From positions 448,001 through 512,000 of the forward strand of contig CAXXGI010000003.1 in the NCBI GenBank assembly GCA_963674695.2: 64,000 bases of DNA, in the 5' to 3' direction. Numbering within the stretch: position 1 is the first letter of the stretch; the number at the start of each line of letters is the position of its first letter. Position numbers and translations under genes: made by a program. Source of the DNA: a bacterium. GTDB taxonomy: Bacteria > UBA10199 > 2-02-FULL-44-16 > JAAZCA01. This document shows, one piece after another, positions 59,411 to 60,727 of the stretch. Below the pieces are notes generated by a model that searched no databases, was not told where the DNA came from, and worked only from the letters and a program-made list of their open reading frames with translations.

Positions 59411-59533
59411 CGACACTATCGGTGGCCGGTCATGAGTTTATATGGCTTCCGGTGGAGCATCTGGTTCGTCCCGGGCCTACTCCAGATTTTTCCTGCCCGC
59501 TCTTTGGATGTTTCACCCGCACCAACAGCGTCG
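59411..59533 (-). ncRNA. Candidate multibranch structured RNA
   Basis: 14-bp closing stem CGACGCTGTTGGTG/CACCGATAGTGTCG with three G-U pairs on the minus strand; internal ATCTGG/CCAGAT and CCGG/CCGG stems. Confidence 0.5.
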
Positions 59534-59542
59534 ATGAAAGAG

Positions 59543-59620
59543 GGCGGTGGCTCATCGGGCAAGACGAAAGCCTATGTGGGGTCCGTCAGTGAGCATCCCG
59601 ACCCCTGCACCGCACCGCCA
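59543..59620 (-). ncRNA. Candidate three-way-junction RNA
   Basis: GGCGGT/ACCGCC closing stem; GGGGTC/GACCCC and GGCT/AGCC hairpins. Confidence 0.5.
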
Positions 59621-59628
59621 ACTTTCGG

Positions 59629-59784
59629 TTACTTTGAAAGAGCAAAGTACAACACATAAAACCAGCCGAGAAACCCATGCAGTATAGCCCATCCGATTGA
59701 GTGGTTGACGCTATAACTGAGTATCATCCCCAACGCGCTACCCATTCCAATCCCAGTTGATATAGCCTGCGAGTTTGCTGACAT
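59629..59784 (-). CDS. Small two-TM membrane protein
   Basis: Manual: MSANSQAISTGIGMGSALGMILSYSVNHSIGWAILHGFLGWFYVLYFALSK; RBS AAGGAG. Confidence 0.7.
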   Translation of the reverse strand: MSANSQAISTGIGMGSALGMILSYSVNHSIGWAILHGFLGWFYVLYFALSK

Positions 59785-59808
59785 ATGCTCTCCTTTCCAT
59801 TAAAATTA

Positions 59809-59875
59809 TGGCGGTGTCTGGTTCCAAGGCCAGATTTGTGTCCGCAGGGTTGCGATCCCTGTAACGGCACCGCCA
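59809..59875 (-). ncRNA. Candidate tRNA-like three-way-junction RNA ending in CCA
   Basis: TGGCGGTG/CACCGCCA; CAGGG-7nt-CCCTG; TCTGG-8nt-CCAGA; no D-arm or TTC. Confidence 0.5.
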
Positions 59876-59895
59876 ACTTTCGGTTTCAAAGAACG

Positions 59896-60192
59896 TCACT
59901 CGTCCTCCCTGCCTCCATCTTGTATTTCAATATATCCCAGGCTATTCACTGAAAAGTAAGCGCCGGTCGTTTCCTCTGGGAAAGTTTTCCGTATGTCACA
60001 AAAAAGTCTGTCTGCTGCACGTGCGGAAGAATCTACGGCGCAGGTGCAATCTTTAAACGACGGACGACGGCGATAAATACAAGTCCAGAATGGAGCTGCG
60101 TAATCTGATAACAGCTTTTCCTCAAAACGTGTCCGCGCTTTAAATATTAAAAAAAGCGACATTTGATGATCTGTCATTGAAAGTTGAATCAT
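59896..60192 (-). CDS. Phage hypothetical protein
   Basis: RBS GGGAGG; flanked on both sides by the TCTTTGAAACCGAAA repeat. Confidence 0.55.
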   Translation of the reverse strand: MIQLSMTDHQMSLFLIFKARTRFEEKLLSDYAAPFWTCIYRRRPSFKDCTCAVDSSARAADRLFCDIRKTFPEETTGAYFSVNSLGYIEIQDGGREDE

Positions 60193-60220
60193 CGCGCCCT
60201 CCCAATTTCGGTTTCAAAGA

Positions 60221-60727
60221 TCATTCCTTGAGCTTCTTCGCTCGGGCTTCGTGCCGCTCCATCTCTTTCCTTGCCTTATTTGCTTCACGGATATGATAGC
60301 CGACTGTCCAGGTGGCGTTTCTCATGGCACGTTTCCTTGAACCATACGCTCGGTCTTCTTCGTCCTTCACATGCGCCTCAATCAATTCCCTGCACTTTTT
60401 CGCCGCCTCTTCCTCTGTATCAAATATGCGGTCTGTAATGCCCCGATAGCCGCTTGAGTACTCGAACGTCTCTCCTTCAACAGTTTGGTGCAGCTTGACC
60501 TCCGTGATCGTTACCTGCTCTGGCTTGCACTCCCATTCGCGTTCAACCACAACCCCGCGTGGGCCTTCGTATCCACAGGCACAATATTCACAGGTCACGG
60601 CATAGCGATCTCCGTTGCCAAGTATGACGACCACAGCCTTCGCGCCGGAACATACTGGACACTCACGCGTTTTCTCCGTGTATTTGTTTTCCGCGATCCA
60701 TACTTTATCACCTACTATGTAGCTCAT
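60221..60727 (-). CDS. Phage hypothetical protein with Zn ribbon
   Basis: CPVCSG...CEYC; IFDTEEEA. Confidence 0.6.
   Translation of the reverse strand: MSYIVGDKVWIAENKYTEKTRECPVCSGAKAVVVILGNGDRYAVTCEYCACGYEGPRGVVVEREWECKPEQVTITEVKLHQTVEGETFEYSSGYRGITDRIFDTEEEAAKKCRELIEAHVKDEEDRAYGSRKRAMRNATWTVGYHIREANKARKEMERHEARAKKLKE

Follow-up and report, generated by a model that had tools for sequence, protein, structure and literature searches.

Host-type boxA motifs beside untranslated, folded RNA in a prophage operon: a possible shield against Rho termination

Why would the minus strand of a prophage operon be broken up, between the genes for the RNA ligase RtcB and the terminase, by untranslated spacers that are predicted to fold? 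The question concerns a stretch of 64,000 nucleotides of bacterial DNA (hereafter, the window), in which a sequence-only reading had described a cluster of three multibranch RNA structures, each led by a boxA antitermination motif, and had proposed that they are processed small RNAs, tRNA decoys or antitermination elements. The strings quoted in that reading are all present at the minus-strand coordinates given for them, and its placement of the cluster in a phage early/middle operon is borne out, with genes for a Sak4-like protein, an HNH endonuclease, a replication initiator, a DUF1064 resolvase and RtcB upstream and the terminase gene downstream. The answer that we put forward, tentatively, is that Rho termination within inserts of untranslated, folded RNA is averted by boxA signals of the host type.

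Untranslated spacers in a tightly packed operon

The phage RtcB RNA ligase gene (61167..62441, minus strand; Pfam RtcB, E 7e-113; PHROG 1075) lies three genes upstream of the first boxA-type motif. Elsewhere in the operon the gaps between genes are mostly 0 to 60 nt, indicative of tight packing; the two untranslated spacers measure 111 nt (containing unit 1 of the three folded units) and 235 nt (containing units 2 and 3). They are separated by a 51-codon gene for a hydrophobic product (59629..59784, minus strand), which has a strong ribosome-binding site and a weak match to PHROG 594 (E 0.0024), and unit 3 is followed downstream by a 58-codon gene (59217..59393, minus strand) with a weak match to PHROG 17798. 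No ORF within the two spacers has a family match, and no convincing promoter site was found in the region. Intrinsic terminators were considered and rejected, as none of the seven terminator-like sites in 56000-64000 falls in the units; after unit 1 there is only the interrupted run AUAAUUUUAAU. The composition of the spacers is not markedly C-rich (C/G 0.84 to 0.93, the single C-rich stretch being 59593-59503) and gives only a weak signal of the kind associated with Rho loading.

The locus is present as contigs in three runs of one study, with no differences between them, and the one RNA run examined yielded no reads over it. Contig breaks at 59853-59857 in run X3, which might suggest recombination, are proximity-ligation chimeras, in which GATC-GATC junctions join the locus to two host contigs.

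BoxA motifs of the prophage and its host

The pattern used to recognize boxA, GYTCTTTGAAA, was derived from the host's own rrn leader, which carries GCTCTTTGAAAAC approximately 130 nt before the 16S gene. The pattern differs at position 8 alone from GYTCTTTAANA, the gamma-proteobacterial consensus quoted in PMC5725501. In the host rrn leader, boxA forms part of the 5' strand of a strong helix between the 16S leader and trailer (-46.9 kcal/mol; z -6.6), a stability matched by 0 of 500 shuffles. The 3.03-Mb genome contains 10 exact matches to the pattern versus 1.26 expected; three of these precede, on the same strand, long untranslated RNAs of the host, namely, those of the rrn operon, the tmRNA and a tRNA with a group I intron in its gene, and two reside in the prophage (at 59894 and 39331), both heading untranslated sense-strand stretches. 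Leader-trailer pairing was not significant for the host tmRNA and the intron tRNA. The association with tmRNA extends to the host class: the relaxed pattern KHTCYTTDAHA is found no more than 150 nt upstream of the tmRNA gene on the sense strand in 12 of 30 genomes and on the antisense strand in 0 of 30, with 0.0165 matches expected per locus. A limited literature search returned no published description of boxA ahead of tmRNA or an intron-containing tRNA. The host genome also encodes NusB, Rho and RNase III.

Within the window, the relaxed pattern occurs six times versus 1.6 expected (0 of 100 shuffles reach six), always on the minus strand and in five of the six cases in the prophage, and 13-mers within two mismatches of the host boxA are only mildly enriched (five versus 1.35 expected; 3 of 100 shuffles reach five). 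Copy 2 of the motif (GTTCTTTGAAA; 59884..59894, minus strand) matches GYTCTTTGAAA exactly and is located 1 nt past the stop codon of a 98-aa gene and 8 nt ahead of the closing stem of unit 1. Copy 1 (GATCTTTGAAA; 60212..60222, minus strand) matches the relaxed host-class pattern and equals the host boxA with one change, an A at position 2, a variant that two of 30 related genomes also carry ahead of tmRNA. Its start falls within the TGA stop codon of a 168-aa gene, 9 nt from the ribosome-binding site of the 98-aa gene, and it is followed by that site and gene, with no structure. The second exact host-type boxA of the prophage (GCTCTTTGAAA; 39321..39331, minus strand) heads approximately 670 nt of sense-strand RNA, which runs antisense to a 193-aa ORF of the plus strand.

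Accordingly, the boxA leaders described previously stand at copies 1 and 2 and fall away at the other two positions. The GCTCTTTCAAAG string of copy 3, with C at position 8 of GYTCTTTGAAA, shows no homology with copies 1 and 2; it sits in the last codons of the 51-codon ORF, within a 7-bp hairpin, TACTTTG/CAAAGTA (59630..59649, minus strand), at the 3' end of that gene. The fourth motif, CUCUUUC (CTCTTTC in the DNA; 59536..59542, minus strand), is no boxA either, being the 3' partner of the GAAAG leader in an extended fold of unit 2; alternatively, it can pair with a portion of the 58-codon gene's ribosome-binding site, although no better than shuffled sequence (z 0.31). Rather than three boxA-led units, there is one: unit 1 alone comes directly after a boxA, copy 1 precedes a gene, and copies 3 and 4 are not boxA.

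What the three leader copies truly have in common is the element AACCGAAA(G)TTGG, with a CGGTGC extension in two of them; copies 1 and 2 have 15 identical bases in common. Allowing at most one mismatch, AACCGAAAKTTGG occurs three times versus 0.23 expected, a count reached in 0 of 100 shuffles. A 19-nt core repeat, AACCGAAAGTTGGCGGTGC (repeat family D14), provides at unit 1 (59867..59885, minus strand) the spacer and then the 5' strand of the closing stem; repeat comparison places its second copy, identical at 19 of 19 positions, at unit 2 (59612..59630, minus strand). The units have no further copy in the host genome.

The conserved leader could be read as a set of lambda-type nut sites, in which boxA is joined by a small boxB-like hairpin in AACCGAAA(G)UUGG that is bound by an N-like protein of the phage. 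We consider this very unlikely: the 13-nt segment after boxA is indeed the best conserved part of all three copies, and GAAA could cap a hairpin, but nothing beyond a 3-bp AAC/GUU stem can form in AACCGAAAGUUGG, the copy 1 region has a z of 0.24, and no N-like family was detected among the scanned prophage ORFs, such proteins being short and sparsely represented in profile libraries.

Copies 1 and 2 are both on the sense strand and between annotated genes, yet each lies inside a short ORF whose start overlaps the stop codon before it, so that ribosomes might cover them. At copy 1, this is a predicted 11-codon ORF (MIFETEIGRAR; 60189..60224, minus strand), the start and stop of which each overlap the adjoining gene as ATGA; at copy 2, it is a 53-codon ORF. 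The repeat might, then, encode the N-terminus (M-x-F-(F)-E-T-E...) of small, coupled ORFs, given that both begin on the preceding stop (ATGA and GTGA overlaps, respectively), that the repeat is read in the same frame in both and that GGGAGG is found 4 nt before the GTG start of the 53-codon ORF. However, the latter has no 5-residue words in common with 5.8 billion proteins, its two HMMER matches are compositional, to repeat proteins, it would run 47 nt into the 51-codon gene, and its codon score of -0.05 is lower than the in-frame mean (0.32) and higher than the off-frame mean (-0.40). By a rough estimate, a common frame would arise by chance in about one case in five. The closing stems as well as units 2 and 3 would also be left unexplained, and we regard a coding origin of the repeat as improbable.

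Predicted folds and what they might do

All three closing stems described for the cluster are present. Unit 1 (59809..59875, minus strand) is predicted to fold as a three-way junction of an 8-bp closing stem (TGGCGGTG/CACCGCCA) and two 5-bp stems with loops of 7 and 8 nt, respectively, the latter hairpin abutting the 3' strand of the closing stem. This fold is more stable than expected (z -3.26; 3 of 300 dinucleotide shuffles as good), and the opposite strand is equally stable (z -3.57). Unit 2 (59543..59619, minus strand), with a 7-bp closing stem (GGCGGTG/CACCGCC) and a branched interior, folds no better than dinucleotide shuffles in its core (z 0.06) and reaches a z of -1.84 when extended by the GAAAG:CUUUC pairing. 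Unit 3 (59411..59533, minus strand) has a 14-bp closing stem with three G-U pairs and a branched interior, and its z is -1.85 on the minus strand versus -0.86 on the opposite strand. When the whole region of 536 nt is folded, units 1 and 3 are kept and unit 2 is lost. The common topology with divergent arms, from which selection on RNA structure had been argued, is loose and seen among three local paralogues only. The AAATCTGG...CCAGA hairpin is common to units 1 and 3, but the minimum-energy fold of unit 3 pairs TCTGG elsewhere.

Do the units represent tRNA-like decoys or small RNAs processed by RNase P, of the P1 C4 or P4 CI kind and perhaps linked to RtcB? The 7-bp stem of unit 1 stacked on a 5-bp stem has the geometry of a tRNA minihelix, the 5-bp stem carries a 7-nt loop with U at position 2 and A at position 6, and among the 46 phage loci that an RtcB search recovered from IMG/VR, eight have tRNA genes within 4 kb. 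The comparison with tRNAs does not go much further. The D arm is absent, the T-like loop is 8 nt long, the acceptor stem is found in no host tRNA, the 3' CCA noted for unit 1 is base-paired within the closing stem instead of forming a free tail, and the minihelix geometry is absent from units 2 and 3. ARAGORN reported nothing in the window, nor in five modes on 58901-60400 (bacterial, mitochondrial, relaxed-threshold and tmRNA modes included), and Rfam, with its tRNA and phage RNA families, gave no match at gathering scores across the window or at E values up to 10 in 59000-60700. We hence view decoys or RNase P products of this type as highly improbable. A broader version of the idea seems to us unlikely as well: the prophage might have copied the architecture of stable-RNA genes into an mRNA operon, where boxA and the closing helix would drive Nus-assisted folding and excision by nucleases, unit 1 would be a D-armless tRNA-like minihelix, and the RNAs would work in trans in the course of infection, for instance by decoying host defences that target tRNAs or by partnering the phage's RtcB. 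Two other RNA candidates were rejected. A bacterial Y RNA (YrlA) acting with Ro60/Rsr beside RtcB has no counterpart here, the genome being without a TROVE match (control genomes were matched) and the RNA without an Rfam match, and an RNA anti-CRISPR that mimics repeats would face a genome in which a crude repeat finder located no CRISPR array.

The flanks of the units raise the possibility of translational control. Two pyrimidine runs, UUCUUUG before unit 1 and CCCUCUUUC before unit 3, could act as anti-Shine-Dalgarno strands that helix closure brings onto the next ribosome-binding site, with opening of the helix or its cleavage by RNase III freeing translation. In the 536-nt fold, both runs pair with purine-rich ribosome-binding sites, those of the 51- and 58-codon genes, lengthening the closing helices to approximately 21 interrupted pairs, and the RNase III needed for cleavage is present in the host. 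Against shuffled trailers, however, the flank pairing has a z of -1.55 for unit 1 (36 of 500 as good) and 0.31 for unit 3, the bases of the ribosome-binding sites are only partly paired (mean unpaired probability 0.28 to 0.38), and such a helix is impossible for copy 1. Overall, control of this kind appears unlikely.

The units and their leader have no homologue in any of the collections searched, which comprised phage records, family and phylum genomes, IMG/VR, JGI metagenomes and GTDB. No match to the elements was found with blastn (distant setting) among 50,697 phage records, and DNA searches of 13 family genomes and 93 phylum genomes found nothing in the units; 7 of the 93 match only nearby, in a tandem-repeat ORF (~59012-59180) and over a small part of RtcB. 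An 18-mer scan of IMG/VR yielded one match, inside a coding region of an AT-rich phage; the leader pattern had 17 matches in JGI metagenomes, about the chance expectation, all with unrelated flanks and some plainly coding; and the leader-plus-stem pattern had 20 matches in GTDB, all within open frames ≥624 nt long. A covariance model of the leader and closing helix retrieved only its two training copies and copy 1 (16 bits) from 818 kb of sequence (the window, its upstream extension and 79 phage loci) and had no match in the other 92 phylum genomes. Syntenic phages were also sought through the surrounding genes. The 168-aa protein has 11 relatives besides itself and 25 IMG/VR loci, in differing contexts and with no tRNA or motif at the loci of the relatives; the 98-aa protein has no relatives in IMG/VR or the phylum; and a terL search recovered 36 loci (best 61% identical), all but two of them AT-rich (GC <0.5), among which the DUF1064 resolvase was the only early gene in common, at a single locus.

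This confinement to one locus fits an explanation without any RNA function, whereby local duplication and the decay of genes, in a cassette region that changes fast, left the spacers behind; the 19-nt repeat would be the scar of a duplication, and the boxA match and the folds would have arisen by coincidence. Duplications and tandem repeats are abundant around the locus (repeat families D1 to D4), the adjoining genes are orphans or move between unrelated phages, and the core of unit 2 has a z close to zero. Decay, by contrast, would hardly keep the 7-nt 3' strand CACCGCC in units 1 and 2 despite their differing flanks, or account for the exact match of copy 2 to the motif that marks long untranslated RNAs of the host, for boxA-type matches that are all on the sense strand and for the tight packing of the remaining operon. 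We consider this explanation somewhat unlikely, albeit the one to be taken most seriously beside shielding from Rho.

How, then, might shielding work? According to a review (PMC12360218), boxA recruits NusB/E and protects polymerase against Rho. In the prophage, we infer that the nascent boxA would recruit host NusB/S10 and other Nus factors to RNA polymerase, and the Nus-loaded polymerase would escape Rho while crossing ribosome-free RNA; as in rRNA operons, boxA could also keep the 5' half of the closing helix close to the polymerase while the 3' half has yet to be made. The folded units themselves might act in cis or be excised as small RNAs. Counting for shielding are the untranslated RNAs that boxA marks in the host, the stability of unit 1 and the preference of unit 3 for the sense strand. 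Counting against it, the elements have no homologue in the collections searched, 13-mers close to the host boxA are only mildly enriched, ribosomes might cover both boxA copies, the spacers are not markedly C-rich, antitermination has no need of three boxA-type signals within 650 nt, copy 1 precedes a gene, unit 2 is no better than shuffled sequence, and unit 1 is strand-symmetric.

Should the boxA copies be functional, a phage from a poorly studied, uncultured bacterial phylum would be using antitermination of the host rRNA type without a system of the lambda N type and would be doing so in the middle of an operon, exactly where ribosome-free folded RNA breaks up the genes. Nus-factor antitermination in phages would then reach beyond the lambdoid nut paradigm, and a general rule would be suggested, namely, that boxA marks long untranslated RNA; the data on the host lineage, with boxA before tmRNA and an intron-containing tRNA besides rRNA, agree in direction. 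The folded RNAs would, in that case, constitute a new family of phage RNAs, so far from a single locus.

Comparison with known systems

Phage T7 carries intergenic RNase III processing hairpins in its polycistronic transcript. Those are simple, irregular hairpins, whereas the elements described here have multibranched interiors and helix extensions that lack statistical support. In both cases, though, repeated, paralogous folded elements lie between phage genes, and the long helices could be cut, separating cistrons and freeing ribosome-binding sites.

Lambdoid nut sites combine boxA, boxB and the N protein and bring about processive antitermination through host Nus factors. By analogy, the transcript of our prophage may be another phage RNA that exploits host Nus factors through boxA. 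Unlike the lambdoid sites, it carries the full host-type motif, far from any promoter and repeated within 330 nt, with no credible boxB hairpin and no N-like gene found.

Copy 1 resembles the suhB leader and other gamma-proteobacterial boxA elements, which, in the cases described by Baniulyte et al. 2017 (PMC5725501), are located <50 nt from the start codon. The boxA of suhB is described in a review as repressing translation and promoting Rho termination (PMC12360218). If copy 1 worked in the same manner, its action would be opposite to that proposed in our main model of shielding.

A further parallel is the leader of rRNA operons, where boxA functions with NusB/S10, NusA, NusG, SuhB and S4. 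The two differ in that boxA of the host rrn leader is itself part of the 5' strand of the helix, whereas the candidate boxA of the prophage stands in the middle of a protein-coding operon, has no identified boxB or boxC partner and is associated with enclosed RNAs of 67 to 123 nt that are not rRNA. Nevertheless, the prophage carries the same core motif as the host rrn leader, on the transcribed strand and immediately ahead of the 5' half of a helix that is predicted to close round a folded, untranslated RNA.

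The operon, its spacers and the repeated leader

Within the window, the prophage covers roughly 34-64 kb, and it continues past the window end; its GC content is ~0.50, compared with ~0.59 to 0.60 in the host. The three folded elements (units 1, 2 and 3; minus strand, 59809-59875, 59543-59619 and 59411-59533) had been assigned to an early/middle phage operon, and this assignment holds, the minus-strand prophage genes including RtcB upstream and terS/terL downstream of the region. In 5′-to-3′ order, three genes past the window end encode a Sak4-like annealing protein, an HNH endonuclease and a replication initiator; genes for a repeat protein, a DUF1064 resolvase and RtcB (61167-62441) come next, followed by two small genes, the boxA/unit region, a series of small orphan genes, and terS, terL and the capsid genes, all on the minus strand. 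Strong ribosome-binding sites and close gene packing prevail throughout, except in two spacers without a supported gene (59785-59895, 111 nt, and 59394-59628, 235 nt), between which stands a 51-codon gene.

Several local features accompany this arrangement. A cluster of small paralogous genes at 57382-58645 (families D3 and D4) has common segments of 112 to 114 nt with 85 to 95% identity, which suggests that sequence ahead of the terminase genes was recently duplicated and shuffled locally. In-frame tandem repeats occur in a 70-aa prophage ORF rich in Ser/Arg/Gly/Trp (58987-59199; 6/12-nt unit) and in a 367-aa prophage ORF (63032-63925; 27-nt unit, ~30 copies). Of the whole region, only the first array has matches in other phylum genomes. 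At 59853-59857, contigs of the public sequencing run X3 break and run on via GATC-GATC junctions into two different host contigs; these are proximity-ligation chimeras, and incidentally they show that prophage DNA and host chromosome share cells.

The strings that the sequence-only reading quoted as a repeated leader were all recovered in place: copy 1 (60212-60222), copy 2 (59884-59894), copy 3 (region 59630-59649) and a weaker fourth motif (59536-59542). The element common to all three copies is AACCGAAA(G)TTGG, with three occurrences against 0.23 expected (three were reached in none of 100 shuffles). Copies 1 and 2 also share TCTTTGAA, just 5′ of this element, and 19 identical bases are common to units 1 and 2, extending into the 5′ strand of the closing stem. 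The repeat could instead be coding, read by short ORFs: copy 1 lies inside an 11-codon ORF (MIFETEIGRAR) whose start and stop both overlap neighbouring genes in ATGA, copy 2 stands at the head of a 53-codon ORF, which begins on the stop codon of the gene before and has GGGAGG ahead of it, and the frame of the repeat is identical in the two ORFs. We nevertheless regard this explanation as quite improbable, given that a common frame would arise by chance about 1 time in 5 (a rough estimate), and that the 53-codon ORF overlaps the 51-codon gene by 47 nt, has an indeterminate codon score, shares no words with 5.8 billion proteins and yields two HMMER matches, both composition-driven and to repeat proteins, with no real homologue; nor did any spacer ORF match a PHROG family.

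BoxA motifs in the host lineage and in the prophage

As reference for boxA, the RNA element that loads Nus factors, we used the leader of the host's own rRNA (rrn) operon rather than a general consensus. In this single operon, GCTCTTTGAAAAC lies ~130 nt before the 16S gene, and the segment itself forms the 5′ strand of the 16S leader-trailer helix (host contig C3, 925825-925875 and 924060-924167, minus strand), its partner being a purine-rich trailer segment; the helix has −46.9 kcal/mol and z −6.6, and none of 500 shuffled trailers was as good. The genome (3.03 Mb) has 10 exact matches to the derived pattern GYTCTTTGAAA, where base composition would predict 1.26. Three of these lie on the same strand ahead of long untranslated host RNAs, namely the rrn operon, the tmRNA (C2:520177-520519, Rfam 150.7 bits; motif 62 nt upstream at C2:520571-520581, minus strand) and a tRNA split by a group I intron (RF00028, 71.4 bits; motif at C1:924428-924438, minus strand). 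ARAGORN made no call for the last; by sequence inspection, it is Asn-like and starts ~13 nt after the motif. Two more matches are in the prophage, at 39321-39331 and at copy 2, 8 nt before unit 1, and the remaining five look coding or accidental.

Ordinary short tRNA genes are without the motif, which was flagged before two of 46 host stable-RNA genes, the intron-split tRNA being a third case outside the flagged set. Of 30 genomes from the host's class, 12 have the relaxed pattern KHTCYTTDAHA on the sense strand in the 150 nt ahead of their tmRNA gene, and none has it there on the antisense strand (expectation 0.0165 per locus); two of the 12 motifs have A at position 2, as does phage copy 1. 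Judged from its listings, a literature search returned no boxA before tmRNA. In the host lineage, the motif marks long ribosome-free RNAs. NusB, Rho and RNase III are all encoded by the host.

Within the window, the relaxed pattern has six matches against 1.6 expected (six were reached in 0 of 100 shuffles), all on the minus strand and five of them in the prophage; a 13-mer test gave five against 1.35 expected and is of mild significance only, five being reached in 3 of 100 shuffles. On these exact and relaxed matches and the tmRNA motifs of the class, copies 1 and 2 can be taken as host-lineage boxA by sequence. The proposed boxA identity of the leaders holds at this level for these two and fails for the others: copy 3, GCTCTTTCAAAG, falls in the final codons of the 51-codon gene, where it folds into a separate 7-bp hairpin, and in the extended fold of unit 2 the fourth motif, CTCTTTC, pairs as 3′ partner with the GAAAG leader.

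The exact match at 39321-39331 (minus strand) lies 3′ of a tail-region gene (39392-40813) and a hairpin, and heads a stretch of ~670 nt of sense-strand RNA. A plus-strand ORF of 193 aa (38738-39319), whose beginning is hydrophobic and resembles a signal peptide, is antisense to this RNA; a second GCTCTTAAA string is found 30 nt beyond the motif. At 55677-55687 (minus strand), the boxA-type GCTCTTTGACA has the final base of the terS stop codon as its first and lies within the first terL codons; copies 1 and 2 likewise start at or beside a stop codon.

Predicted folds and known RNA families

Closing stems and, in unit 3, three G-U pairs are present as described, and the supposed 3′ CCA of unit 1 proved to be paired within the stem. 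Against dinucleotide shuffles, unit 1 has z −3.26 on the minus strand (3 of 300 shuffles as good) and −3.57 on the opposite strand; the corresponding values are 0.06 and 0.24 for the unit 2 core, −1.84 and −1.57 for unit 2 extended, and −1.85 and −0.86 for unit 3, where the strand difference is consistent with the G-U pairs. A fold of the whole 536-nt region retains units 1 and 3, with coding-region pairings replacing unit 2. Units 1 and 2 have retained the 7-nt 3′ strand CACCGCC between flanks that differ on either side, which provides one argument for selection.

Using ARAGORN, we found no tRNA or tmRNA in the window, nor in the unit region with its mitochondrial, relaxed-threshold and tmRNA modes, and Rfam 15 gave no matches, whether with gathering scores over the window or with E values up to 10 over 59000-60700; the suggested tRNA-like RNA of the C4/CI kind thus finds no backing in either search. 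No host tRNA matches the unit 1 stem, the TROVE/Rsr protein is absent from the host genome, and a crude finder located no CRISPR array there. The terminator-like sites found in 56000-64000 all fall outside the units. No relatives of the units were found in phage records, IMG/VR, JGI metagenomes, GTDB genomes and all 93 genomes of the phylum, nor with a covariance model, and the adjoining genes are orphans or are placed in unrelated contexts elsewhere. A search of sequencing runs gave no RNA reads over the locus. Among phage RtcB loci, 8 of 46 have tRNA genes within 4 kb; on one IMG/VR contig (L084), a boxA-type motif at 8784 lies between two tRNA genes in an array of eight, and the phage RtcB gene is 3.6 kb upstream of it.

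Possible role and comparison with known systems

Published work describes boxA as recruiting NusB/S10 to give Rho-resistant elongation complexes and, depending on context, as also able to repress translation and promote termination (PMC12360218, PMC5725501, PMC3177189). Sense-strand copies of host-type boxA are shown here, at the sequence level, immediately 5′ of apparently ribosome-free, foldable RNA. Our main reading, put forward tentatively and at somewhat less than even confidence, is that host-type boxA carries polymerase over untranslated folded RNA inserts: the phage would use boxA to bring RNA polymerase across them, and boxA might perhaps assist in bringing together the two strands (5′ and 3′) of each closing helix, as in the host rrn operon. 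The folded RNAs may be excised as small RNAs, act in cis as processing sites or control translation; in predicted folds, pyrimidine runs pair with downstream ribosome-binding sites, a pairing without statistical support. The observation in the sequence-only reading is thus partly confirmed, and its interpretation partly supported.

The arrangement differs from a lambda-type nut site, as neither a boxB hairpin nor, among the prophage ORFs scanned, an N-like gene was found. In its working, the closest match would be the boxA signal of rrn operons, here set in a phage transcript, and what is new is its place in the middle of an operon, the phylum and the orphan nature of the RNAs.
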